A stretch of DNA of 64,000 bases, taken from assembly GCA_013002345.1 (NCBI GenBank), contig JABDKH010000196.1, forward strand, positions 5,160-69,159, written 5' to 3'. The notes under the pieces are model-generated. The model ran no database searches. It had not been told where the DNA came from and saw nothing but the letters and a program-made list of their open reading frames with translations. Shown piece by piece: positions 2,458 to 55,990 of this stretch. A program made the position numbers and the translations under genes. Source of the stretch: Rhodothermales bacterium. Lineage in GTDB: Bacteria; Bacteroidota; Rhodothermia; Rhodothermales; JABDKH01. Each line of letters begins with the position of its first letter. Position 1 is the stretch's first letter.

Positions 2458-2484
2458 TTAACACGCGATATGAAGCGCCGATAA
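2458..2484 (+). promoter_or_regulatory. Candidate sigma-28 (FliA-type) promoter: TTAAC-N14-GCCGATAA
   Basis: gTTAACacgcgatatgaagcGCCGATAAtgc. Exact match to the sigma-28 -10 consensus GCCGATAA, with a TTAA/TAAC -35-like element at canonical distance. Lies 59 nt upstream of the NlpC/P60 start. Same architecture as 10333-10359. Confidence 0.45.
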
Positions 2485-8348: not shown

Positions 8349-10265
8349 CTACAGGCCGCTGAATACGACGCGCGACATCTCCTCGATCGTCGTCTCGCCT
8401 GCGATGACCATTGCACGTGCACTATCCTGCAGCGTCAGCATTCCCTGCTTGATCGCAAGTCTTCCGAGGGCCGCCTCGTCGATCGCCTCCTCAGCTTCGA
8501 CAATCATCTCCCGGATCTCAGGCGTGAACGGCATCGTCTCCGTAATGGCACGACGCCCCTTGTAGCCGACCCCCCGGCACGTCTTGCACTTACCTCCTTC
8601 CGTCGCATTGTAGAACGTAATCTTGTCTAGCTCTTCGGGCCTGAATCCAAGGTGCGACAGCTTGCTCTTCTCAATAGACGTCGCCGGCGCCTTGCAGTCC
8701 TGGCAGACTGTTCGGATCAATCGCTGTGCCACAACGAGGTTGATCGCGTATGCGATCAGAAACGGTTCAATGCCCATCTTGTAGAGTCGGCTTATCGAAC
8801 TTGGGGCGTCGTTCGTATGAAGCGTCGAGAACGTCAGGTGACCCGTGTTCGCCAGCTTGATGGCCAGGTCGGCCGTATCCTTGTCGCGCATCTCTCCGAC
8901 CATGACAATGTCCGGGTCGTGTCGGAGTATTGAGCGGAGGGCTTGATCCAGTGAGAGCTTGTGGCTCAGCTTCACCTGACGCACCTCGGGGATAACATAC
9001 TCTACGGGGTCCTCCACCGTCAGCACATTGACTTTCGGTGTGACGACGTGACTCAGAGCCGCGTAGAGAGTCGTGCTCTTTCCGGAACCAGTGGGACCCG
9101 TTAGAATGACCATCCCGTACGGCTGGTGTATCGCCCACTCAAAACGCTCGAGTGCACTCTCTGCCAGACCGAGCTTTCGCAGATCCTTGATGACCTTTCG
9201 GTCGTCGAGGATCCGGATAACGATGCTCTCTGATCGAACCGTCATTTCGGCGTTCGCGATCGGCAGCACCGATACGCGAAACCGAATGAGCGCATTGTCG
9301 ATCTCTCTCTGTATGAACCCGTCCTGAGCACGCTCCCGCTCGAATCGATCTACGTTGATACTGTTGTCCTTCACGACCGCGAGGAACGCCTCCGGGTGGA
9401 CGCGGTCTTCAATGTGCCAACTGGTAAGCTCACCGTCGATCCGCAGTCGAATTTCGATTTCTTTACGGGCGTTCGGGAAGATGTGCACGTCGGAAGCACC
9501 CTGACGCACGGCTTCTTTCAACGTTGCTTCGAACAGGTTGATGAGCGCCGACCGATTGATCTCGGCCTCAAGCGCGTCCTCGTCAAAGAGTGCGCGCTCA
9601 GGATCGTCCACGGAGGCGCCCAGGTCAAACGCGAGCATGCCTTCCGCCGCCTTTCCAAAATCTCCCTTGCGGCGCCGGCGAACCTCATCAATGAATCCGT
9701 CAACCTCGACACGCTTCGCGAAACGGATCTCGATCTCCCGAAAACCAAGTTTCTGGAGCGTTCTCATCAGGTCCTGGCGGGCCGGATCGTGCGTGGCCAT
9801 TATCACGCGTCGTCCTTCTGAGCCTTCCTCGATCTTTACAGGCGCCACGCGGAGTTGCTCGAGCCCTGCCCACTGATCGGCCGTAATTCGGGCACCAAGG
9901 CCCTTCAGAAAGTCGGTAGGGTCCATTCCCTCGAGGCTGATCGTCGCAAACGAATACACGATCGCGGCCTGTTCAAATACAATTTCCGGATCGATTTCCG
10001 GGTCTTCAGCCAGTTCTCGCCAGAGTGGGTAACTCGTGCCTCCCTCCTTCTTGACCCAACGGTCCCACGCCGCCTGCACATGTTGGATGAGCACGAGTTC
10101 CTCGTACAGGAGCTTGATAACAACCCGGTCCCGCAGATCAAGTGGGTTGAATGTGGTTGAGTCCGGCGACTCGGGAACTCCGGCGGATCCGTTCCCACTC
10201 GGGCTTGAATCGGGACGGGCTAATGCATCAGCCTGCCAGCGTTGGTCCTTGGATGACTCTGCCAT
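8349..10265 (-). CDS. GspE/PilB-family secretion/type IV pilus assembly ATPase (orphan; unusual N-terminal extension)
   Basis: Walker A GPTGSGKSTT, Asp/His boxes, tetracysteine CQDC...CKTC, and a T2SSE_N-like region (RRVIMATHDPARQDLMRTLQKLGF). Start preferred at ATG 10265; the ORF track uses GTG 10319. No pilC/pilM/pilQ neighbours. Confidence 0.9.
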   Translation of the reverse strand: MAESSKDQRWQADALARPDSSPSGNGSAGVPESPDSTTFNPLDLRDRVVIKLLYEELVLIQHVQAAWDRWVKKEGGTSYPLWRELAEDPEIDPEIVFEQAAIVYSFATISLEGMDPTDFLKGLGARITADQWAGLEQLRVAPVKIEEGSEGRRVIMATHDPARQDLMRTLQKLGFREIEIRFAKRVEVDGFIDEVRRRRKGDFGKAAEGMLAFDLGASVDDPERALFDEDALEAEINRSALINLFEATLKEAVRQGASDVHIFPNARKEIEIRLRIDGELTSWHIEDRVHPEAFLAVVKDNSINVDRFERERAQDGFIQREIDNALIRFRVSVLPIANAEMTVRSESIVIRILDDRKVIKDLRKLGLAESALERFEWAIHQPYGMVILTGPTGSGKSTTLYAALSHVVTPKVNVLTVEDPVEYVIPEVRQVKLSHKLSLDQALRSILRHDPDIVMVGEMRDKDTADLAIKLANTGHLTFSTLHTNDAPSSISRLYKMGIEPFLIAYAINLVVAQRLIRTVCQDCKAPATSIEKSKLSHLGFRPEELDKITFYNATEGGKCKTCRGVGYKGRRAITETMPFTPEIREMIVEAEEAIDEAALGRLAIKQGMLTLQDSARAMVIAGETTIEEMSRVVFSGL

Positions 10266-10332
10266 AGTTGTGTCTGAGACGAACAGGAAATGGGCGGAAC
10301 TTGAGCCGGAATGGAACACCGGTCAATGTTCG

Positions 10333-10359
10333 TTATCGGCCTCTGAAAGGGTCCGTTAA
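10333..10359 (-). promoter_or_regulatory. Candidate sigma-28 (FliA-type) promoter: TTAAC-N14-GCCGATAA
   Basis: The minus strand reads cTTAACggaccctttcagagGCCGATAAcgaac. Exact -10 octamer, and the same -35-like pentamer and spacing as 2458-2484. Lies 68 nt upstream of ATG 10265. Confidence 0.45.
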
Positions 10360-10469
10360 GGGATTGCAGGCCCCCTATTTTCGGAGTCGTGACCGCGACG
10401 TCGGATCGGCCACACGAAATGCCGCCACCGGCCGCACGATATCCTCGTGATCGGAAGCTCTTTCAGGTT

Positions 10470-10488
10470 CGTGGAATCGATTTCCACG
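10470..10488. promoter_or_regulatory. Perfect inverted repeat CGTGGAA-N5-TTCCACG (candidate enhancer/UAS for the sigma-54 activator)
   Basis: Read directly from the sequence. Lies about 170-185 nt upstream of the sigma-54-like promoter at 10656, the usual distance range for bEBP binding sites. Confidence 0.35.
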
Positions 10489-10655
10489 TGACAGCGCTGT
10501 TTGTTGAAGAGGAGGACTCTGGATTGACAACATCCTTACGTACAAGGACAGTTCCTGTGATGCTTTTTAAATAAGTGTGATACAAGTGGTTATAGATAAT
10601 TAGTAATGTAAAAATTGAAGTCTACCGAATCGCTGATCTCGTCGCCGCCACACCT

Positions 10656-10671
10656 TGGCGCGACACTTGCT
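10656..10671 (+). promoter_or_regulatory. Sigma-54 (-24/-12) promoter
   Basis: TGGCGC-gacac-TTGCT versus consensus TGGCAC-N5-TTGCW: one mismatch, correct GG-to-GC spacing (12 nt). An AT-rich tract (10555-10625) and the palindrome lie upstream. Confidence 0.6.
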
Positions 10672-10748
10672 TGCATGTGAGTAGCATTCCACCGGGTGCG
10701 TCGATCGTCACCAGATCACGCTCCCTTCCACTCTACCCGAGTATCGCC

Positions 10749-11585
10749 ATGATTCATCAGATTCGCGCCGCGTCGGCTCAGGCTTTCCTTGCCAACTACC
10801 GACTTCCCCACCGCACTTTCGCGCAGAAGGACCCGAACTTCCCGGTGATCGGCCCGATCTGGGACGCTATGAAAGAGGGCGACTACCGGATCGCAGCCGG
10901 CCTCGTCACCGCCGAACTCGAAGGCCAGAGGTTATTCAGCGCCGAGGAAAAGACGGCCATGATGGTCGCTCTCGCCAATGCAGAAGTACTGATGGGCAAG
11001 ACGGATCGCGCCAAAAAAACCGCAGGAAAGACGCTGGATCTGTTTCCAAACCAGTGGTCCGGCCATAGAGTCCTGATTCATGTTCTCCACCTGAAACAGG
11101 CCTACAAGGCCGCATACCTTCAACTGCGCAAGCTCGAGCCGGGCCCCGTGCCGCTGTGGGACTGCCCGATAGGAACCACCGAAAGACACACCGTCATGGC
11201 GGCCTGGTCCTGGCTGTTGGGCGAGTGGGAACGCGTCTCCACTCATCTGAAGAAAGCCTACCCAGACGGAATAGATTCGATGCCTGCTGAAATCCAGGAG
11301 GACTGGTTCAGGCTCTCGCTGTACCGCGGACGCCCACAGGACGCAGTCGCTGTCGCTTCGCTACTGATTGAGCAGCGCCCTGTCGACCTGGCCGATGAAC
11401 TGCTGCAGACGTTCGTCCAGAATGGTTGGACCAAGGAAGCACTTCCCCTCTATCGTGCCGCATACGAGAGCGCACCACAGAGCCAGCTGCTTCGACGACG
11501 TCTCGTCGCGCTATGCATACGCGAGGGTGAACTGGAGGAAGCGCGGGATCTCACGCGGCCCGGTGCCCTCGACCTGGCAGCATAG
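10749..11585 (+). CDS. Hypothetical all-helical (TPR-like) protein, putative sigma-54-dependent
   Basis: Clean ORF with no signal peptide or TM. Repeated helical pairs (…AMMVALANAEVLMGKTDRAKKTAGKTLDLFP…, …ALPLYRAAYESAPQSQLLRRRLVALCIREGELEEARDL). Start set at the first ATG downstream of the sigma-54 promoter, which overlaps the ORF-track TTG start at 10671. Confidence 0.6.
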   Translation: MIHQIRAASAQAFLANYRLPHRTFAQKDPNFPVIGPIWDAMKEGDYRIAAGLVTAELEGQRLFSAEEKTAMMVALANAEVLMGKTDRAKKTAGKTLDLFPNQWSGHRVLIHVLHLKQAYKAAYLQLRKLEPGPVPLWDCPIGTTERHTVMAAWSWLLGEWERVSTHLKKAYPDGIDSMPAEIQEDWFRLSLYRGRPQDAVAVASLLIEQRPVDLADELLQTFVQNGWTKEALPLYRAAYESAPQSQLLRRRLVALCIREGELEEARDLTRPGALDLAA

Positions 11586-11695
11586 GGAACGAGAACCGAC
11601 GACTGTGCGCTGCTACCTGCGTGCCCGTAGCACGCACCGGAAGATTTTTCCGGAAGATCTTTAAGTCGCGAAGCCGAACTGGCGATAAGAACATT

Positions 11696-11838
11696 GTCAG
11701 CGGCATGCGACCCCGGTCGATAGATCGGGAAATCCCACGGGAAAGGTTCTGGCGATAATGGTTCCCCTGGGTAACGGACGGAATGGCGAACCGTCCCTCA
11801 GCGGCCTTCAGGTTACCTGGAGGCCGCTGTTTCTTTTT
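11696..11838 (+). ncRNA. Candidate small RNA (promoter-like element to intrinsic terminator), function unknown
   Basis: TTAAG-N15-GGCGATAA (11661-11688, a weaker version of the sigma-28-like motif) lies upstream. Internal hairpin GGACGG-aatggcgaa-CCGTCC (11776-11796). Strong terminator at 11799-11838. No ORF of 60 aa or more on this strand. Confidence 0.25.
11799..11838 (+). terminator. Rho-independent terminator
   Basis: CAGCGGCCT-tcaggttacctgg-AGGCCGCTG (perfect 9-bp stem) followed by TTTCTTTTT. No T-tract in the opposite orientation. Confidence 0.6.
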
Positions 11839-11863
11839 GCGAGAATCGGACTTCCGTGCTTCG

Positions 11864-12094
11864 CTACGCGGCCTTTCGGACGTCCGGCTCTGAATCGGGA
11901 TCTGCCCGCAGCTCAACGATAGTCAGCGTGGTGTCGCCAGAATCATCAAGGTCATCCGGCCGCTCCGAAGCAAGCTGGACAACGTGAGACGCATCGGCGA
12001 TGAACTCCGATTTCAAGGCGTTCAGCTGTACAACCTGCGACGCAGGTTCGGCCGGCGGGCACGCTTTGCGATTCGATTCCAATGGTTCCTTCAT
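11864..12094 (-). CDS. Small acidic hypothetical protein (76 aa)
   Basis: MKEPLESNRKACPPAEPASQVVQLNALKSEFIADASHVVQLASERPDDLDDSGDTTLTIVELRADPDSEPDVRKAA. Lies downstream of, and co-directional with, the sigma-54 activator gene. Codon third-position GC resembles neighbouring genes. No recognisable family. Confidence 0.3.
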   Translation of the reverse strand: MKEPLESNRKACPPAEPASQVVQLNALKSEFIADASHVVQLASERPDDLDDSGDTTLTIVELRADPDSEPDVRKAA

Positions 12095-12323
12095 GGTCGT
12101 TCCATGCCGGTATGGGTGGCATGTCACTCCGACGCCGTAATCGTGCCAAACGCACAGCCGCACCTGTATCGTTCGTCGCAGATCTGACCCTGGAGCCTCT
12201 CGAAAAGCCAGAAAGAGCGATTCTGGCAGCCGAGTCGATGGCAGAGGCCATGCAGCTCGCGGACGATGAAGCGGTCGTTCGCGGCAAGCGTTTCCGGAAA
12301 GATGAGGGTTGCCCCCCAGCGGT

Positions 12324-13712
12324 CTACGAGATCAACCCGTCTTCGCGGTACTTCTTGAGCTTGTTTCGGATTGTGCGAGCGCTGATGCCCAGCTTCTGTG
12401 CCGCCAGCTGCTGATTGTTGTTCGTCTCCGACAGGGTTCGCAGGATCATGTGCCGTTCCATCTCCTCGATGGTCTCGATATTAACAGGAGCGTCCGCCCC
12501 GTCACCTCCGGCGACCAGGTCGGCGTCTATGAAGAAGCTGTCGAATACGTCAGTCTTTTCGACGGTGGTTCGCTCCGCGGAGAGCAATACACCTCGCTGC
12601 ACCATGTTCTCAAGTTGGCGCACGTTCCCGGGCCATGAGTAGGTCATGAATTGATCCAGAAGCTCCTTCGAGACCTGCTTCGATGGCAGTCCGTAGAGCT
12701 CGCAGTACTTGACCACGAAGTGTTTCGTCAGAACCGGCACGTCCGACATGCGGTCCCTGAGCGGAACGCCGTTTACCGGAAAGACAGAAATCCGGAAGTA
12801 CAGATCCTCGCGGAAATCGCCCTCGCGAATAGACTCGGACAGGTTCCGGTTGCTGGTCGCGATCACGCGCACATCAACCTTTTGAGGTTCAGAGGCACCG
12901 ACCTTCATGAACTCGTTCTCCTGGAGGACCCTGAGGAGCTTCGCCTGGGTCGGCAGATCGATCTCTGTGATTTCGTCCAGCAAAAGCGTCCCCTTGTCTG
13001 CTTTCTCAAACGCACCGACCATATCATCGATTGCTCCCGTGAACGCACCTTTTCGATGACCGAAGAGATGGCTTTCAACCAGCTCGCGAGGCAAGTTGGC
13101 GCAGTTTACGGCGATAAACGGCCCGGAGGCACGGTCACTGCTCTCGTGGATCAACCGCGCCAGAATCTCTTTGCCAGTTCCGCTTTCACCCTGGATAAAA
13201 ACCGGCGCGGCGTTCTGACTCACTTTCGGTATGACCTCCAGAAGCCGGGCAACGGACGGATGCTCTCCGATGAACTGAACGGTGGGTGCCGATCTCTTGC
13301 GCGCCGACGGGCTCTCGGCAGCCGCCCGCGGCGCTGCCTGCGTCTTCCTCTTCAGGACGTCCTGAATCCGTTCAACGACGAGAGACGGCTGAAACGGCTT
13401 CGCAATGTAGTCCACGGCTCCGGACCGCATGGTGCGCACGGCGTGCTGCACGTTCGCATGAGCAGTGATCATGATCACACCGAGATCAGGGTAATTCTGA
13501 CGAATGTGCGCAAGCAGCTCGAGGCCGTCCATGTCCGGCATCATGAAGTCAGTCACGACCAGGTCGAAGTTCTCTGTCTTCAAATGCTCCACGGCCTTGA
13601 CGGCACTGGAGCAACATGTCACGCTCATGTCGTGACGAGCCACAAGACGTTCAAACATCTTGTGAAGCATCACCTCGTCGTCGACGAAGAGGATGTGTGG
13701 AGTGTGGTCCAT
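12324..13712 (-). CDS. Sigma-54-dependent response regulator (NtrC/PilR class: REC + AAA+ + Fis-type HTH)
   Basis: REC domain (ILFVDDE…DLVVTDFMMPDMDG…KPF); AAA+ with GESGTGKE, the GAFTGA loop and ATSNRNL; C-terminal HTH QQLAAQKLGISARTIRNKLKKY. No sensor kinase gene adjacent. Confidence 0.93.
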   Translation of the reverse strand: MDHTPHILFVDDEVMLHKMFERLVARHDMSVTCCSSAVKAVEHLKTENFDLVVTDFMMPDMDGLELLAHIRQNYPDLGVIMITAHANVQHAVRTMRSGAVDYIAKPFQPSLVVERIQDVLKRKTQAAPRAAAESPSARKRSAPTVQFIGEHPSVARLLEVIPKVSQNAAPVFIQGESGTGKEILARLIHESSDRASGPFIAVNCANLPRELVESHLFGHRKGAFTGAIDDMVGAFEKADKGTLLLDEITEIDLPTQAKLLRVLQENEFMKVGASEPQKVDVRVIATSNRNLSESIREGDFREDLYFRISVFPVNGVPLRDRMSDVPVLTKHFVVKYCELYGLPSKQVSKELLDQFMTYSWPGNVRQLENMVQRGVLLSAERTTVEKTDVFDSFFIDADLVAGGDGADAPVNIETIEEMERHMILRTLSETNNNQQLAAQKLGISARTIRNKLKKYREDGLIS

Positions 13713-14130
13713 TGATCTCAGATTCCGGCAGCAATCACGGGTGGGTTGATGTCGAAGATACTAACTATCTCGACAGCTATGATGTCCATCCGCTAGCGGC
13801 CGGCTCAAACTCATCCTGTCCGAACCGCCCCGTCGAGAGAGGGGCTAGCGGTCGTCCGACCGACTATTCAGCGTTGCCCGGAGGCATCTTTGGGTCATCG
13901 TGCGGTAGGATTTTCCGAACGATTGCCCTGGTCCTAAGCGCAAGTCATTGAGATGGGCCACGTGCGCAACGTGCAACTCAAACGTGTGGAAGGGCGCGTC
14001 GCAGCATGTGCCCGCCGGATACGAGCGGCAATCTAACAGGCCCTCATGAGCTGAAATCCCTGTTTTTTGGCTGACCATTGCCGTCCGCCGGACGCGATCG
14101 ATCGAACCGTTTATGTCAATCTGGCGAACG

Positions 14131-14138
14131 GCCGATAA
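14131..14138 (+). promoter_or_regulatory. Exact sigma-28 -10 octamer GCCGATAA upstream of the small-membrane-protein/fliA operon (no good -35)
   Basis: cgaacgGCCGATAAcg, 99 nt upstream of ATG 14237. The -35 position reads TATG/TTAT, not TTAAC/TAAA. Confidence 0.25.
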
Positions 14139-14174
14139 CGATAAAGTTGACGCATGCACCAGCTCTTCCGTCAC

Positions 14175-14189
14175 TGGCATCAATCTTGG
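14175..14189 (+). promoter_or_regulatory. Imperfect sigma-54-like element TGGCAT-N5-TTGG
   Basis: Correct 12-nt -24/-12 register, but the -12 element is GG rather than GC. Lies 48 nt upstream of ATG 14237 and is divergent from the sigma-54 activator gene. Confidence 0.25.
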
Positions 14190-14236
14190 ATTGCTTGCGC
14201 TCGCACTACCCAGGCATCCAACCCATCGGTCCTACC

Positions 14237-14491
14237 ATGCGCGTTCTAACGCTTCAGTTCAGTGTCCTCATCGGGGTCCTGACATTTGTGAGCCAGATTA
14301 CAAGCGGGATGGCACTCGAATCGTCGATGCTGCGCGGCCTTGCCACGGCATCCGCCATCTTCCTCGTCATGCTGCTGGGTGACCTCGCAATTCAGGCCGT
14401 TGTTCGGTCGCATTCACCGGCACAAGCTTCGTCCGCCCGGCCGGTCCCCAATCGAGACAGCGGAGATCAAAGCGACGCGCTCGCTGCCTAG
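14237..14491 (+). CDS. Small membrane protein (84 aa, two predicted TM helices)
   Basis: MRVLTLQFSVLIGVLTFVSQITSG…ATASAIFLVMLLGDLAIQAVV, then a polar tail. Lies immediately upstream of the FliA-family gene on the same strand. Confidence 0.45.
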   Translation: MRVLTLQFSVLIGVLTFVSQITSGMALESSMLRGLATASAIFLVMLLGDLAIQAVVRSHSPAQASSARPVPNRDSGDQSDALAA

Positions 14492-14552
14492 ACACCCGCC
14501 TCTCGCATCGCCAGTCATCGCCACATTACAACTGTTGATTCGCATGTCGCAA

Positions 14553-15305
14553 GATCTACAGAGTCTCGCCGTTCTCTACGCCCGCGATACATCCCCTTCG
14601 AACCGTGAAGCCGTCGTCGTCGCAGCGGTTCCACTCGTAAGGTCAGTCGTTGGTCGACTCAGCGTGCCCGATCATCCTCTGGCGGCACGCGAGGACCTGG
14701 AAAACGTCGGCCTGCTGGGACTGTTGCAGGCCCTGAACGGCTACGATCCCGATCGCGGGACACCGTTCGTTTCCTATGCCTACGGTCGCATCCGCGGAGC
14801 GCTCGTAGACTATCTCAGATCCATCGATGCCCTTCCGCGAGAACGCCGAAGGAAGCTGGCGCAGGCACAGCGGGCCATCGACATTCTGAGGCAAAAGAAG
14901 GCCGGTGAGCCGACCGACCACGAAGTCGCCGACTATCTTGAAATGACACTTGTGGAATACCACACGCTCCTACGGGACGCCCAGTGCCGCTTCGCTCTGT
15001 CGCTCCACGCACCCACGGACAGCGACGGTGAACAAACAGTCCTCGAGACAATTCCCAACGAAGAGACGCTCAAGGCTTTTGAGCGCATCGATACCAACTC
15101 GCTCCATCGGTACATTGGAACGCTCGTCAAGGAGCTGCCGGAACGGGAGCAAACGATCCTGGCCCTGTACTACTACGAAAGCCTGACGCTCAGGGAAATC
15201 GCCGCCCTGCTAGACCTCACCGAAGCACGCATATCACAGATCCTCGGCAAGATCCTGAAAACACTCCGTGCCCAGCTCGCCAAGACGCACGCACGCGCCG
15301 CCTGA
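14553..15305 (+). CDS. fliA: FliA/WhiG (sigma-28) family RNA polymerase sigma factor
   Basis: Strong colinearity with FliA: LENVGLLGLLQALNGYDPDRGTPFVSYAYGRIRGALVDYLRS (regions 2.1-2.4) and LPEREQTILALYYYESLTLREIAALLDLTEARISQILGKILKTLRAQL (region 4). Start set at ATG 14553 (250 aa). Confidence 0.88.
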   Translation, partial: DLQSLAVLYARDTSPSNREAVVVAAVPLVRSVVGRLSVPDHPLAAREDLENVGLLGLLQALNGYDPDRGTPFVSYAYGRIRGALVDYLRSIDALPRERRRKLAQAQRAIDILRQKKAGEPTDHEVADYLEMTLVEYHTLLRDAQCRFALSLHAPTDSDGEQTVLETIPNEETLKAFERIDTNSLHRYIGTLVKELPEREQTILALYYYESLTLREIAALLDLTEARISQILGKILKTLRAQLAKTHARAA

Positions 15306-20996: not shown

Positions 20997-22397
20997 ATGT
21001 CCGAGTTTAGAATAGAGAAAGACTCCCTGGGTGACGTCCACGTGCCAGCGTCTGCTTACTACGGCGCCCAGACGCAGAGAGCGGTGGACAATTTTCCGAT
21101 CAGCGGTTTGCGATTCTCGCGCCGATTTATCCAGGCGCTCGGGATCATAAAGCAGGCTGCCGCGGAGGCCAACCTCGAGCTGGGTCTTCTGTCAATGGAG
21201 AAGGCCGAAGTGATTGCCGCCAGCGCCCAGGCGGTGGTTGACGGGGAGCTCGACGACCACTTCCCGATTGATATTTTTCAGACCGGTAGTGGCACCTCCA
21301 CCAACATGAATGCCAACGAAGTGATTGCAAATCACGCGTCGAAGGCCATGGGTGGCGACCTTGGCAGCAAGCTGGTTCATCCCAATGATGACGTCAACAT
21401 GTCGCAGTCTTCCAACGACGTCATCCCGTCCGCGATGCATGTTGCGGCCCGATCCGCAATCGAACACGAGCTGCTGCCGGCACTCGATCGCTTCCTCGAT
21501 GCGCTCCGGGCAAAAGAGGCCGAGTTCGATGACGTACTCAAGAGCGGGCGAACCCACCTTATGGACGCCACTCCGGTTCGGCTGGGACAGGAATTCGGCG
21601 GTTATGCGGCCCAGATCCAGAGCACGATAAAACGTCTCGAACGGGCGTCATCCGAGCTGTCGGAGCTTGCTCTCGGTGGTACAGCTACTGGAAGCGGTAT
21701 TAACAGGCATCCCGACTTCCCCGCAAAAGCGATCGATCGTATTTCCAGTAAGACTGCGCTCGATTTTCACGAGGCTTCAAATCATTTCGAAGCCCAGGCT
21801 TCGAAAGACGCCTATGTGTCGTGCGCGGGTGCACTAAACGCCGCTGCCGTCTCGGTGATGAAGATCGCCAATGATATCCGACATCTGTCCAGCGGTCCCA
21901 CCTCCGGTTTGTCCGAAATCAAACTGCCGGCGATACAGCCCGGTTCGTCGATCATGCCAGGTAAAGTGAACCCGGTCATGAGCGAGGCCATGATGATGGT
22001 TGCTTCACGCGTCATGGGTAACCACACCACCATTACGATTGCCGGGCAGCATGGGAATTTCGAGCTCAATGTCATGATGCCGGTCATGACGCACGCGATG
22101 CTCGAGAGCATCGTCATACTGACCGGGGCGTGTGATGCATTTCGTACGAACTGCCTGAACGGGATAGTCGCCGATCGCGACCGCTGCAAGGAGTTGTTGG
22201 AGTTAAATCCGTCCATAGCAACCGCCCTGAACAGCGCGATCGGCTATGACGCCGCGGCCAAAGTAGCCAAGAAGTCCGCCGCCGAACGCATCTCCGTCCG
22301 AGACGCCGCCAAGGCACTCGGACTCCTGGACGACGCAGAGCTTGATCGCTATCTGGATGTGAAGGGCATGACTGAACCGGGTATCCCGGGCGACTAG
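20997..22397 (+). CDS. fumC: Class II fumarate hydratase (aspartase/fumarase superfamily)
   Basis: FQTGSGTSTNMNANEV, HPNDDVNMSQSSNDV, and the signature GSSIMPGKVNP. Closer to FumC than AspA by motif. Confidence 0.88.
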   Translation: MSEFRIEKDSLGDVHVPASAYYGAQTQRAVDNFPISGLRFSRRFIQALGIIKQAAAEANLELGLLSMEKAEVIAASAQAVVDGELDDHFPIDIFQTGSGTSTNMNANEVIANHASKAMGGDLGSKLVHPNDDVNMSQSSNDVIPSAMHVAARSAIEHELLPALDRFLDALRAKEAEFDDVLKSGRTHLMDATPVRLGQEFGGYAAQIQSTIKRLERASSELSELALGGTATGSGINRHPDFPAKAIDRISSKTALDFHEASNHFEAQASKDAYVSCAGALNAAAVSVMKIANDIRHLSSGPTSGLSEIKLPAIQPGSSIMPGKVNPVMSEAMMMVASRVMGNHTTITIAGQHGNFELNVMMPVMTHAMLESIVILTGACDAFRTNCLNGIVADRDRCKELLELNPSIATALNSAIGYDAAAKVAKKSAAERISVRDAAKALGLLDDAELDRYLDVKGMTEPGIPGD

Positions 22398-22635
22398 TAC
22401 TTTCCTCGAATCGCTGCGGCGGCGACACAATAATCGGGCAGCGTCGAGCGTTATCATCCGCGTGTGGCGTGAGAGTGATACCTCCGTTAGGCTCAGCGCG
22501 CCGTGACCTCCGGGTTGCGGCGCGCTTTGCCGAAAAATGCCACGGGAGGCACCCGCCCGGCACGCTTTTTTCTAGACCAACATCAGAGTTGTTGCGACCA
22601 TCACATCTGCCAATTTGTCTGAGAGAGTTGACAAA

Positions 22636-24210
22636 ATGGAAGATCCAAATCGGTTTACAGGTATCATGAGCATCAAGGGAAAGGCATCGATCGCCGTCAT
22701 TATAGTTGTCACATTTGTATCCGGAATCCTCGTTGCTACCGTCGGGACTAATGTTCTCGGGTTAGCCAACAGAGTGGGTAGCGATACCCAGGCCGGGACG
22801 CTCGTGGAACCCTCGAACGGGCCTGCGGAGTCATTGGCCGGCGCGGCAGTTGCATTTGAAGACGTCTTCGTACAGATCGCGGAGTCGGTGAACCCATCGG
22901 TTGTTCAGATCCGCTCCGAGCGAGTTTCAAAGACCGAAGGGTTCGCCACCAATCCCTTTGAAGGAACGCCGTTCGAAGACATGTTCAGGAGAAACATTCC
23001 GCCGCAGCAATTCAGGTCCAACGCCCTGGGCTCCGGAGTCATTATCAATGCCGACGGCCACATAATTACGAACAACCACGTGATCCAGGAAGCCGAGGAA
23101 CTGGAAGTACAGATGTTCAATGGCGAGTATTACGATGCCGAAGTGGTCGGGACAGATCCAAACAGCGACCTTGCGGTCATAAAGATCAACGCTCCACAGG
23201 ATCTCACCACCGTCAGGTTTGGCTCGTTCGATGAAGTCCGAATCGGCCAGTGGGTCATGGCGTTCGGTTCTCCACTCTCAGAGGATCTTGGAAATACCGT
23301 AACCGCCGGAATTGTGTCTGCCGTCGGACGCACAAGCCTGGCCCTTTCACAGCTCAACACCTTTTCTTCCTTCATCCAGACGGACGCCGCCATCAATCCG
23401 GGTAACTCGGGAGGACCGTTGGTTAACCTGCGTGGAGAGCTCGTGGGAATCAATTCGGCAATCTTCAGTCGATCGGGAGGAAGCCAGGGGATCGGATTTG
23501 CAATACCCGTCGACGTAGTGAGCAATGTGACCACTCAGCTGATTCAGACCGGCGAAGTCAAGAGAGCGTTTCTCGGCGTTTCGTTCGGTCCGGTTAGCCC
23601 CTCCCTCTCTGATGCTTTCGGTGTTCCGCGAGGCGCCGCACAGGTAGAGGGCGTTACCGCCGGGAGTGCGGCTGAAAATGCCGACCTCAAGTCAGGTGAC
23701 ATCATCGTCGCAGTGAATGGAGTGCAATTGAAGGACTACAACCAGCTACGCACAACCATTGCCAACATGCTGCCTGGCGAAAATGTTGATCTGTTGGTGG
23801 TGCGCGATGGAAAGAAGAGGACCATCACGGTAAAGCTCGGGCAGCGAGATGATGACGCTATTGCGAGAAGTGAGGATGCACCCACTGCCAATCCTGACAC
23901 CGAATTGGAATCTCTTGGCATGACCATCAGAGACACCTCGCCCGATCTTCTACGACGTTTCGGATTCTCGGATGAGAGCCTGAAGGGAGCGGTAATCACT
24001 GAGATTGATCGTAGCAGTGATGCGTATCGCGAAGCCGAACTTCGGCAGGGTGATGTCATAACCGAGTTGGACAGAAAGCCGATTACATCACGAGCGCAAC
24101 TGCTTCGGGCCTATGAGGCCGTGGATGCTGGCGATATGTTTCTGGTTCGAATTGTCAGACCCGCGGGAACGAGTACGCGGAGCTCTATTACGGCGCTCAA
24201 GAAGCAATAG
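22636..24210 (+). CDS. htrA: HtrA/DegP/DegQ family periplasmic serine protease with two PDZ domains
   Basis: Catalytic triad context: TNNHVI, DLAVIKI, GNSGGPLVN. Two PDZ-like segments follow. N-terminal membrane anchor. Confidence 0.9.
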   Translation: MEDPNRFTGIMSIKGKASIAVIIVVTFVSGILVATVGTNVLGLANRVGSDTQAGTLVEPSNGPAESLAGAAVAFEDVFVQIAESVNPSVVQIRSERVSKTEGFATNPFEGTPFEDMFRRNIPPQQFRSNALGSGVIINADGHIITNNHVIQEAEELEVQMFNGEYYDAEVVGTDPNSDLAVIKINAPQDLTTVRFGSFDEVRIGQWVMAFGSPLSEDLGNTVTAGIVSAVGRTSLALSQLNTFSSFIQTDAAINPGNSGGPLVNLRGELVGINSAIFSRSGGSQGIGFAIPVDVVSNVTTQLIQTGEVKRAFLGVSFGPVSPSLSDAFGVPRGAAQVEGVTAGSAAENADLKSGDIIVAVNGVQLKDYNQLRTTIANMLPGENVDLLVVRDGKKRTITVKLGQRDDDAIARSEDAPTANPDTELESLGMTIRDTSPDLLRRFGFSDESLKGAVITEIDRSSDAYREAELRQGDVITELDRKPITSRAQLLRAYEAVDAGDMFLVRIVRPAGTSTRSSITALKKQ

Positions 24211-24371
24211 GGATAAGCGGTAGCGCCAGAGGCCCCTCACTTCGGTCCCCGTGCCGTGAGGCGATTTCGGGACGCCCCGCGGAGTTCTGGCTGCAGTGGA
24301 TGAAAATGCATAAGTTGCCGCTGATGACCGTCCGGTGATGGTCGACGACCAACCTTTGGGGTATCCCGTGT

Positions 24372-24800
24372 ATGCCTGACCTGAAGCGTTTTGTGGGCCG
24401 TGTCGCTGACGCGATGGGACCGGCGGCCACACCCGAGAGGGTTGAATCAATCTCCAGACTCCTCTTGGACGAGATTCTGCAGTCCGGCAACACAGTTTCG
24501 CAGGCACCGGATTCGGTGCGACCGTCGGAGCACCGCGTTGTGGTTTCGGCCATGGGCCCCGGCATTGAGGCTGTTCGGGCGTCCATCTCACGCATCGTGA
24601 CAGATATCGGCGGAGTGATCGTCGAAGTCGGCCGGGACCAGAATGAAGAACGCCCTGACCTCTTCATGGTTGTGGCACTTCCCGAGTCGGGCATATCGAT
24701 CGCCGAACTTCAGACCAGGTTGGACGCCGTTTCGACTTCGAAGGACGCCACGGTGAGCGTTCAGCACGAGGAACTCTACAACGCCATGAACCGCTCGTGA
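24372..24800 (+). CDS. ACT-domain protein (UPF0237-like) with N-terminal extension
   Basis: The C-terminal ~85 aa (HRVVVSAMGPGIEAVRASISRIVTDIGGVIVEV…LFMVVALPE…) looks like an ACT fold. Sits in the usual position upstream of a UPF0210-like gene. Confidence 0.55.
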   Translation: MPDLKRFVGRVADAMGPAATPERVESISRLLLDEILQSGNTVSQAPDSVRPSEHRVVVSAMGPGIEAVRASISRIVTDIGGVIVEVGRDQNEERPDLFMVVALPESGISIAELQTRLDAVSTSKDATVSVQHEELYNAMNRS

Positions 24801-24838
24801 TTGCCAGCGACAGACGTTGATTGTGGGGGTGAGACTTT

Positions 24839-25969
24839 ATGCAGCGTGAGGCCAGCGATCAACGGCAAATCTCAATCACGCGTCTCCATCTGGAGTCGGT
24901 GACGCTTGGAATCTCGTTGCGCGATTGCAGCAGCAGACTGGCGTCGACGGCTAAGGCCCGAATCTATGACAAGGTCAGGCGTGCCGGTGGGCAACTCGCC
25001 CGCTGCGTGAACGACACGGTGAACCACTACGGTAGTTCAGCGGAACACGTTTTCGCGACCGTGTCACCCGTTTCCACCTTGTTCGACGCAATGTCGGAGT
25101 CCGATTACGTTGGAATCGCCGAGACGCTGAATGCTGCAGCAATCGACATCGGTCTTGAGGCAATCGGCGGGTACAGCGCCCTCTGTTCAGCAGGAATGTC
25201 TGCAGGAGATCAAGCGCTGATCCGATCTCTGCCGGCTATGCTCAGCTCGACGGATCGCATGTGTGCCTCGGTGGAGTGTGCGAAATCGCAGAAAGGTATC
25301 GGCATTGCTGCGAGTGAACTGATTTCGTCAGTCCTGGCCGGCATCAGGTCGGTTTCCGGCCCCGCCGGTTACAGGCCCGACCGAATTTCCGTGCTCGCCA
25401 ATGCGTCCGGCAACAGTCCCTACGTCCCCGGATCGTTTCATGGCATTGACGAGCCGGAAGTTGCGCTCCACATCGCCGTATCATCGAAGTACGTGCATCA
25501 ACAGCTGCTGCACCGCATCGACGACGGGTCAAGTCTCGATGACGCGGCGGACGACGTCGCTAATCAGGTGGAGCGACTCAGGAGGGGTGGACGTTTTCTC
25601 AGCATTCGTTGCGCTGAGACACTCAGCCAGCGTTCCGGTATGGACGTCCGACCAGGACGAGTGGATATCTCGATGCCTGTCGCCGAAAGTTCAGTGATTC
25701 ACGGCAATCGGACGGAGCACAACGGTGTCAGCGCTGCCTCTGCGAGAACTACGACTGAATCCGCGGCCCTGGCTGCACGTCAAGGACTGCTTTCGTTGGC
25801 TCGTTCGACATCCTCCTTCGCTGGCGCGCCCATCATCCGCCGCGTCGTCAAGCTTGATTCAACATCGTCGCCGCGAGAAGTGACCGGACTGATCCTGCCT
25901 CATCTCGCTGAGGCTGTCAGGAACGGCGTCGAGTTGATTCTCTCCATTGAATCGACCCGGCAGGCTTGA
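24839..25969 (+). CDS. Divergent, short UPF0210 (DUF711)-like protein
   Basis: The N-terminal two thirds are colinear with UPF0210 as I recall it (ITRLHLESVTLGISLRDC, IGGYSALCSAGMSAGDQALIRSLPAML, NSPYVPGSFHG). The C-terminal part is diverged, and the protein is shorter than the roughly 450 aa I recall for the family. Confidence 0.55.
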   Translation: MQREASDQRQISITRLHLESVTLGISLRDCSSRLASTAKARIYDKVRRAGGQLARCVNDTVNHYGSSAEHVFATVSPVSTLFDAMSESDYVGIAETLNAAAIDIGLEAIGGYSALCSAGMSAGDQALIRSLPAMLSSTDRMCASVECAKSQKGIGIAASELISSVLAGIRSVSGPAGYRPDRISVLANASGNSPYVPGSFHGIDEPEVALHIAVSSKYVHQQLLHRIDDGSSLDDAADDVANQVERLRRGGRFLSIRCAETLSQRSGMDVRPGRVDISMPVAESSVIHGNRTEHNGVSAASARTTTESAALAARQGLLSLARSTSSFAGAPIIRRVVKLDSTSSPREVTGLILPHLAEAVRNGVELILSIESTRQA

Positions 25970-55156: not shown

Positions 55157-55990
55157 CTAGAAGACGCGGGCAACGTACGCCAGATAGAGGTATGCCATCG
55201 GAACCGCGATAATCATAGCGTCAAGGCGATCCAACAGCCCCCCGTGGCCCGGCAGGATCGTTCCGGAATCCTTTACGCCGGCAGCTCGCTTAATACGACT
55301 CTCGGCAAGGTCGCCAAGCTGCCCGACCGTTCCGCATATGAGTCCAAGAGCGACGCAATCGATCCATCCGACCGAGACGAGGCTGAGTTTCCACAATCCC
55401 AACGCGACCATCACGGCCCCGATGGCGCCACCGACAGCACCTTCCCACGTCTTTTTTGGTGAGATCTCAGGTGCAAGCGGGGTACGCCCGAGCGTTCGTC
55501 CCACATAGTAGGCAACAGTATCGGATGCCCATACCAGCACGAATACCGACAGCGTCAGCCAGAAGGCGCTCTCCTCTCCAAGTGCAGCAAGCGCCTCGAC
55601 TCTGAGGTCAACGAGGTACGTCAGCAGCACGGTCGGATAGAATACCGCCGTCACGGTCGAGGAAAACGACTGCCACGGATTCTCAAATCTACTGGACAGG
55701 AGAATGCCGACGGCGAGAACGATAGACATCCCGACCGCCAAGGGGACGGCCTGCGGAAATTCGGTGCGCAACCCAACCACAGCACCAATTGCCAGACCCG
55801 CCACGGGAAGTGTCCGAACGCCGAGTCGGCCCAGTAGACCGTACAGTTCATACTGAGCAAGCAAACCGCCAGCCAGTACCAGACCGAGGAACAGCCACCC
55901 TCCTGCGTAGGTGGCATAGACCACCAGAGGAATCGCAACGACGGCCGTCGCAACGCGAGTGATGCTGTTGGGTAAACTCAAGACTGACAC
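55157..55990 (-). CDS. cdsA: Phosphatidate cytidylyltransferase
   Basis: Polytopic; SDTVAYYVGRTLGRTPLAPEISPKKTWEG and the signature LAESRIKRAAGVKDSGTILPGHGGLLDRLD. Confidence 0.9.
   Translation of the reverse strand: MSVLSLPNSITRVATAVVAIPLVVYATYAGGWLFLGLVLAGGLLAQYELYGLLGRLGVRTLPVAGLAIGAVVGLRTEFPQAVPLAVGMSIVLAVGILLSSRFENPWQSFSSTVTAVFYPTVLLTYLVDLRVEALAALGEESAFWLTLSVFVLVWASDTVAYYVGRTLGRTPLAPEISPKKTWEGAVGGAIGAVMVALGLWKLSLVSVGWIDCVALGLICGTVGQLGDLAESRIKRAAGVKDSGTILPGHGGLLDRLDAMIIAVPMAYLYLAYVARVF

Follow-up and report, generated by a model that had tools for sequence, protein, structure and literature searches.

The 64-kb stretch of DNA analyzed here (hereafter, the window) appears to carry a sigma-54 promoter for a gene encoding a TPR-repeat protein, together with a tandem enhancer, an adjacent gene for the response regulator that probably acts on this enhancer through a looped spacer, a second target promoter, and a role in flagellar regulation. 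We assign to this model as a whole a probability of about 0.7, based on the comparison of related sequences. Specifically, the element at 10656-10671 would be a sigma-54 (RpoN) promoter that drives the TPR gene from the ATG at 10749. Promoters of the sigma-54 class all depend on an activator that is powered by ATP and binds some distance away, and the most likely one, the adjacent response regulator (12324..13712), would, once its REC domain is phosphorylated, form an oligomer on two tandem sites, GGAAgctctTTCA and CGTGGAAtcgatTTCCACG, with centers 20 bp apart on one helix face, and contact sigma-54 by looping the 170-bp spacer. Within the flexible AT-rich DNA, a bend at ACAA-N4-TTA (10582-10592) would probably aid looping. 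A second sigma-54-like promoter (14175-14190), in front of a small membrane ORF and fliA, is probably fired by this regulator too, so that the promoter of the TPR gene would be part of a flagellar hierarchy that leads from sigma-54 to sigma-28. That is, the arrangement looks like an ordinary enhancer-dependent promoter, a new example of a well-known design and not a new type of system. The features of the promoter region and the candidate activator gene are the following:

8349..10319, minus strand: gene for a PilB-like T2SSE ATPase
10333-10359, minus strand: almost perfect sigma-28 (FliA)-type promoter TTAA-N15-GCCGATAA, facing the PilB-like ATPase gene
10453..10465, no strand: distal, weaker putative enhancer site GGAAgctctTTCA, center 10459, 20 bp upstream of the palindrome center
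10470..10488, no strand: proximal putative enhancer site CGTGGAAtcgatTTCCACG, CGTGGAA-tcgat-TTCCACG, core GGAA-N5-TTCC, center 10479
10555..10625, no strand: AT-rich tract in the putative looping spacer, with an extreme composition specific to this genome
10582..10592, plus strand: mid-spacer element ACAAgtggTTA with the CAA-N4-TTR core of the IHF consensus, a candidate bending-protein site
10656..10671, plus strand: sigma-54-type promoter TGGCGC-N5-TTGCT, TGGCGCgacacTTGCT, with the -24 GG at 10657-10658 and the -12 GC at 10669-10670
10681..10748, plus strand: predicted transcription start (~10681-10683) and ~67-nt 5' leader, placed from the -12 GC (C10670 as -12)
10749..11585, plus strand: gene for the TPR-repeat protein (Pfam TPR_14, TPR_19), the predicted target of the promoter
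12324..13712, minus strand: candidate activator, a response regulator of the bacterial enhancer-binding-protein (EBP) type with REC, AAA+ (with GAFTGA) and Fis-type HTH domains

The promoter lies in a divergent intergenic region of 430-480 bp, with the PilB-like gene on one side and the TPR gene on the other. An earlier note on this DNA had proposed a sigma-54 promoter at 10656-10671 with one mismatch to the consensus and an exact -24/-12 register, and the element is found there as described: it has the GG-N10-GC register by which sigma-54 promoters are recognized, and its single mismatch to TGGCAC-N5-TTGCW falls on the variable A of TGGCAC. No other place in the 64 kb matches TGGCNC-N5-TTGCW. 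By itself, this match is not significant, because 0.31 matches are expected per window by chance and 25 of 100 shuffled sequences had at least one. It is the conservation across relatives, unlike the lone match, that makes the putative promoter convincing. A scan with the TPR protein provided ten loci (L001-L010; 54-97% identity) from metagenome bins assigned to Rhodothermales, Rhodothermia or unclassified Bacteroidetes, and a protein search provided 139 relatives, from which 11 further loci (L011-L021) were taken; all family members with a name belong to Rhodothermales or to unclassified Bacteroidetes. GGC-N7-TTG in the -24/-12 register is kept, 76-155 nt 5' of the matched TPR gene start, in all 16 related loci whose TPR gene has its own upstream region, a count that overstates independence (as do the other counts of loci given here) since many of the compared loci are phylogenetically related. 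This conservation supports the sigma-54 reading. The -12 is TTGC in 13 of the 16 and TTGT or TTGA in the remaining three (L007-9), and the variants are distributed as follows:

TGGCGC-N5-TTGCT/A: window, L001, L002, L016; canonical -12
TGGCCC-N5-TTGCG/C/A/T: L003, L004, L020, L021; canonical -12
TGGCTC-N5-TTGCA: L005, L017, L019; canonical -12
TGGCCT-N5-TTGCA: L018; canonical -12
GGGCAG-N5-TTGCT and AGGCAG-N5-TTGCA: L006, L010; canonical -12
TGGCAA/TT/AG-N5-TTGTA or TTGAT: L007-9; non-canonical -12

TTGC at the sigma-54 -12 is near-universal, and the elements with TTGT, TTGA or TTGG there (L007-9 and the second promoter, below) are either weak or atypical sigma-54 promoters or a different element at these places. 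The intergenic DNA around the promoter is otherwise mostly unalignable between loci. Between the window and L001, its closest full relative, enhancer, promoter and leader are 93-100% identical vs. 74-82% for the four-fold sites of the flanking genes. No promoter or enhancer was recognizable in the distant relative L015, where a gap of 450 bp precedes the TPR gene. A protein with an RpoN box was sought in the 64-kb window and not found, and we infer from the activator's intact GAFTGA that rpoN is present in the lineage; a literature search on Rhodothermus, Salinibacter or Rhodothermales gave no relevant paper on sigma-54 or rpoN. The relaxed pattern TGGC-N7-TTGNW has ten matches in the window vs. 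2.9 expected (no shuffle reached ten), and the additional ones lie mostly inside long ORFs according to the ORF list (e.g., TGGCACagcgaTTGAT within the PilB-like gene); matches at 8716-8731, 21300-21315 and 55856-55875 (all minus strand) are among them.

Downstream of the promoter, the mechanical ORF of the TPR gene starts at TTG 10671. The suggestion that the real start is ATG 10749 instead is supported by the homologues, which share this ATG, and by L002 and L005, which have no in-frame start farther upstream. The leader at 10684-10748 (65 nt) is 100% identical to L001 and L016, i.e., above the neutral level, and shows no conservation in more distant loci; it may contain a leader structure or a regulatory site. 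Comparing the TPR protein sequence with solved structures gave no useful information.

The perfect inverted repeat that had been put forward as a candidate enhancer about 170-185 nt upstream is present as well, with arms CGTGGAA at 10470-10476 and TTCCACG at 10482-10488 separated by 5 nt, and it is the sole inverted repeat found in 10300-10760. Its center lies 178 bp from the -24 GG. The distal site GGAAgctctTTCA, overlooked at that time, is about two helical turns from the palindrome, and tandem sites 19-21 bp apart also occur in L001, L002, L005, L017, L018, and L019. The window thus has the dyad sites expected of an EBP enhancer, 20 bp apart and 178-198 bp from the -24, with the nearby activator as the candidate protein to bind them. 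The core GGAA-N5-TTCC is kept 148-178 bp upstream of the -24 GG in all 11 long-spacer sequences (the window included), which argues for the proposed enhancer role, and the flanking bases change as a matched pair (TGGAA..TTCCA in the window and L001 vs. CGGAA..TTCCG in L002-4). The short-spacer loci L006-L010 have the variant GGAAAAnnnTGCC at 60-72 bp from the -24. Four loci (L005, L019-21) have no PilB-like gene and yet keep the palindromes and the sigma-54 promoter, and therefore the sites belong to the TPR promoter; in these loci the region follows the gene for ribosomal protein L27, and a hairpin resembling a terminator can be seen in L005, L019, and L020.

Between enhancer and promoter, the tract at 10555-10625 had been described as the most AT-rich stretch of the window and as DNA that could bend. 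The first part is correct, with a GC content of 20% in 10564-10613 vs. 34% for the next lowest 50-nt stretch and a window mean of 57%. As to the second part, conservation inside the tract is limited to a short element, ACAA-N4-TTA, a candidate bend site, and does not extend to the extreme AT-richness itself: the same 170-bp spacer in L001 has 53% GC. We rejected the idea of an AT-rich tract conserved as such: the relatives' spacers have 46-53% GC, and 10534-10625 shares only 52% identity with 3786-3877 of L001, the two being collinear with net length exactly preserved. The differences are A/T-biased in the window (24 strong-to-weak vs. 8 weak-to-strong), and the 52% identity is lower than the 74-82% at four-fold sites, i.e., the tract diverged faster than silent sites. 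We also considered the tract as a housekeeping promoter, which appears unlikely: a scan of 10200-14500 for sigma-70-type promoters found none, and no Bacteroidetes-type TAnnTTTG box was seen in the tract by eye. Hence, we read the tract as largely unconstrained, possibly flexible looping DNA in which one constrained element is embedded, and not as a conserved bending tract.

The embedded element is exact (ACAA-N4-TTA) in the window, L001, L002, L017, and L018 and has one to two mismatches in L003-5, L019, and L020 (L003/4 and L020 being degenerate), whereas the chance of one match of this type per spacer is about 0.01-0.02. Its center is 105-108 bp from the enhancer center in nine loci, and its distances to the -24 are 70, 70, 69, 70, 70, 59, 59, 49, and 49 bp, i.e., they change in steps of about one helical turn; L020 has 101 and 72 bp, respectively, and L021 has no such element. 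The IHF consensus is WATCAANNNNTTR, with the core CAA-N4-TTR, and ATACAAgtggTTA of the window matches seven of the nine defined positions of this consensus, which is a partial match. No HU/IHF gene signature was found in the 64-kb window. A Rayleigh test of the enhancer-to-promoter distances with a 10.5-bp period gave R=0.58 and p ~0.04 for nine non-redundant loci, a marginal result that is only suggestive of helical phasing. The palindrome lies 118-147 bp from the divergent sigma-28 box, a spacing that is not phased, as opposed to the constrained sigma-54 side. This sigma-28 promoter on the PilB side is conserved in L001-4, L006, L010, L017, and L018, and a second exact sigma-28 match lies at 2458-2484 (plus strand) before an NlpC/P60 hydrolase gene, making two in the window vs. 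0.14 expected.

The candidate activator has the domains of an NtrC-type response-regulator EBP, with Pfam matches to Response_reg (1.2e-29), Sigma54_activat (2.3e-66), and HTH_8 (3.4e-13) and an intact GAFTGA; it is the single GAFTGA protein of the 64-kb window. It was compared with the NCBIfam equivalogs NtrC, AtoC, FlbD, LuxO, FlgR, ZraR, and others, and all scores were below the respective cut-offs (NtrC best, with 401 vs. 559 bits; FlbD, 364 vs. 750; FlgR, 325 vs. 750). Since no equivalog threshold was reached, the protein is not nameable as NtrC, FlbD or FlgR and is an unassigned member of the superfamily. An exact-sequence look-up of the protein gave no match. The linkage between the TPR gene and the activator gene is kept in every locus long enough to show both, the recognition helix of the HTH (GISARTIRNKLKKY) is nearly invariant across the activator orthologues, and the motif recurs at the second promoter; these observations support the earlier proposal that the adjacent REC-AAA+-HTH protein is the activator. 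Furthermore, of the 40 near-matches to the motif in the window, 4 are located in the intergenic DNA next to these genes, which amounts to 1.2 kb (binomial P=0.007, post hoc). By linkage, co-occurrence, and helix conservation, the palindrome most likely belongs to this activator.

In L007-9, the genes for the TPR protein, an HDOD protein, a small soluble HisKA-HATPase kinase, and the activator follow each other in this order on one strand, behind the same promoter type (L007 4859-8134); this arrangement points to a two-component operon with autoregulation. Neither the HDOD gene nor the histidine-kinase gene of L007-9 occurs anywhere in the 64-kb window, which leaves the activator locally orphan there, and no sigma-54 promoter was seen in the sequence before the activator gene itself. 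A small ORF of about 76 aa (11864-12094, minus strand) lies downstream of the activator gene and is predicted by gene callers in L016-18 as well. This doubtful gene is without a match in Pfam or NCBIfam and shares 86% identity with L001, where its neighbors share 97%.

On the other side of the activator gene, a second set of elements precedes fliA:

13904..13916, no strand: enhancer-like site GGTAGGATTTTCC, 266 bp upstream of the second sigma-54-like promoter
14175..14190, plus strand: second sigma-54-like promoter TGGCAT-N5-TTGGA, TGGCATcaatcTTGGA, upstream of the small membrane ORF and fliA
14237..14491: small membrane ORF
14544..15305: fliA (sigma-28), which passes the NCBIfam FliA/WhiG cut-off

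The second promoter is conserved as TGGCAY-N5-TTG[G/A/T] in all seven sequences compared, with a non-canonical -12 in each of them, and a GGAA-N5-TTCC-type site is found 255-319 bp upstream of it in five of the seven. L007 and L008 have two perfect GGAA-N5-TTCC sites each, 264-319 bp upstream, and L006 and L010 have only the two-mismatch variant GGAC-N5-TGCC. A sigma-28 box, GCCGATAA, lies at 14131-14138, between the 13904-13916 site and the second promoter; fliA may have tandem sigma-28 and sigma-54 promoters.

The flagellar context is provided by more distant relatives: in four genomes, one of them that of Rhodocaloribacter litoris, the TPR gene lies directly 3' of flgK-flgL, in a cluster with the order flgG-A-H-I-x-flgN-flgK-flgL-TPR, followed by HDOD except in L015. 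Flagellar regulation is probable because the TPR gene follows flgK-flgL in these relatives. Both flagella and fliA are present in Rhodothermales such as Roseithermus (PMC7409140). By analogy with Caulobacter, Vibrio, Pseudomonas, and Campylobacter, this promoter is most likely part of a flagellar hierarchy, with a tier of sigma-54 activation ahead of sigma-28. As a separate observation, the window (22615-25969, compared with L012 8574-12145) has genes for an HtrA-like protease and a DUF711 protein in the same order as after the flagellar cluster of Rhodocaloribacter litoris. In the window, these genes are preceded by fumarase and pantoate ligase genes and not by flagellar genes; therefore, the flagellar cluster was moved from or lost at that position.

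It is possible in principle that the promoter is real while the palindromes are bound by another transcription factor or by an EBP encoded elsewhere, and not by the adjacent regulator. We consider this unlikely. A single 64-kb window of the genome was viewed, with its one GAFTGA protein, and Rhodocaloribacter and its relatives have the TPR gene in a flagellar cluster that has no activator gene nearby, both of which would fit a binder from elsewhere. However, TPR and activator genes remain linked at protein identities of 54-97% and also where the gene order is inverted, five of the seven sequences have the motif on the other side of the activator gene as well (at the second promoter), and the near-invariant recognition helix goes along with a conserved motif; the sole other DNA-binding regulator conserved nearby is FliA. 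Hence, we favor the adjacent response regulator as the protein that would bind the palindromes. A different question is which promoter such a protein would serve, since two divergent promoters flank the palindrome, which is some 146 bp away from the -10 box of the sigma-28-type promoter of the PilB-like gene (10359-10333, minus strand) and could be an operator of the latter or be shared by both. The presence of a palindrome copy beside the sigma-28-like promoter at 11661-11688 (below) means that the binder may act at sigma-28 promoters too. We nevertheless regard an operator role on the PilB side, exclusive or shared, as quite improbable: the four loci that lack the PilB-like gene keep the palindromes together with the sigma-54 promoter, and the distance to the sigma-28 promoter varies by non-integral turns (118 vs. 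145-147 bp), whereas the sigma-54 side is constrained.

The most radical departure from our model would be that sigma-54 does not use TGGC-N7-TTG at all, that is, the element is another factor's site or a chance match and the TPR gene is read from a housekeeping or sigma-28 promoter that we failed to recognize. The chance matches in 25% of the shuffled windows, the loss of the -12 C in L007-9 and at the second promoter, and the failure to find rpoN in the 64-kb window all point in this direction, but the exact GG-N10-G spacing kept in 16 loci, the enrichment of the relaxed pattern in the window (ten vs. 2.9), and the lack of any sigma-70-type promoter in 10200-14500 or of a plus-strand sigma-28 box upstream of the TPR gene argue against it. 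In addition, we know of no partner of GAFTGA activators other than sigma-54. For these reasons, we find such a scenario hardly credible and favor a sigma-54 promoter, activated by the adjacent regulator from the tandem sites, as the probable explanation of these elements.

Several known systems share parts of this putative design. The class III/IV flagellar promoters of Caulobacter crescentus use sigma-54 with FlbD bound at ftr enhancers and an IHF site in between; common to them and the window would be a sigma-54 promoter of a flagellum-linked gene, an activator of the response-regulator type with a Fis-type HTH, and a palindromic enhancer about 100-200 bp away with a bend site in between (a candidate in our case). 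FlbD is also among the best NCBIfam matches of the activator (364 bits). Unlike in Caulobacter crescentus, however, the activator scores far under the 750-bit FlbD cut-off, the phylum is Rhodothermota, and the regulated gene would encode a TPR protein with named members in Rhodothermales and unclassified Bacteroidetes only; to our knowledge, GGAA-N5-TTCC is not the ftr sequence. The Pu promoter of Pseudomonas putida (XylR and IHF) and the nifH promoter of Klebsiella (NifA and IHF) resemble the arrangement described here in the pair of activator sites (putative in our case) that lie 120-200 bp upstream and share a helical face, in an element similar to the IHF core some 50-70 bp before the -24, and in a spacer that is held in length and phase and not in sequence. 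They differ in that the bend element of the window matches the CAA-N4-TTR core only, with IHF being putative in this lineage, and in that the activator is a two-component response regulator as opposed to a ligand-sensing protein of the XylR or NifA type.

The FlrC/FleR/FlgR tier of Vibrio, Pseudomonas, and Campylobacter, where sigma-54 is followed by sigma-28, likewise relies on a REC-AAA+-HTH regulator, and the further similarities are a small soluble histidine kinase gene beside the regulator gene (in L007-9), an adjacent fliA preceded by a sigma-54-like promoter, and sigma-28-type promoters nearby. FlrC binds downstream of its own promoters and FlgR is not known to need DNA binding, as opposed to the conserved upstream sites found here. 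The activator also differs from these regulators in reaching no NCBIfam equivalog cut-off (FlgR, 325 vs. 750 bits), and, unlike in these hierarchies, the 64-kb window is without flagellar structural genes.

If correct, our model would provide a first sequence-level view of enhancer-dependent transcription in Rhodothermales, a little-studied group, and a predicted motif (GGAA-N5-TTCC) for an uncharacterized activator, with two target promoters. The natural series of spacers (49, 59, and 70 bp) argues for face-of-helix looping, and the model would tie the TPR family of this group to flagellar regulation, suggesting a sigma-54 to sigma-28 cascade as in Proteobacteria. The general understanding of sigma-54 promoters would be unchanged by it; its value lies in the annotation and in a clean comparative example. 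It is intriguing to speculate that the locally orphan activator, acting on cGGAA-N5-TTCCg, might be a small Rhodothermales-specific flagellar hub that controls two sigma-54 promoters and also binds at about -50 of a sigma-28-type promoter for a small RNA, which would join the sigma-54 and sigma-28 tiers and the RNA in a feed-forward circuit, with a sigma-54 that tolerates non-C at -12 and looping phased by a non-canonical bending protein. We offer this extended version tentatively, as a possibility with rather modest chances.

The small RNA in question would come from a non-coding block just past the stop codon of the TPR gene (11637-11842, plus strand), which is nearly invariant in eight loci with TPR proteins that are 71-99% identical. 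Rfam searches of 10300-12350, at gathering thresholds and with E up to 10, identified no RNA family; a weak snoRNA match in this range was rejected as being the terminator hairpin only. We consider the block a candidate sRNA of about 140 nt with a start near 11696. A hairpin in it, CCCCGGTC..GATCGGGG, shows compensatory changes, and at 11799-11829 there is a strong intrinsic terminator, to which a T-run is added. On the 5' side of the candidate sRNA, invariant TTTAAGT and GGCGATAAG boxes of sigma-28-like appearance (11661-11688) surround a variable spacer, and a further copy of the palindrome, CCGGAAgatttTTCCGG, lies just upstream of these boxes at 11637-11653.
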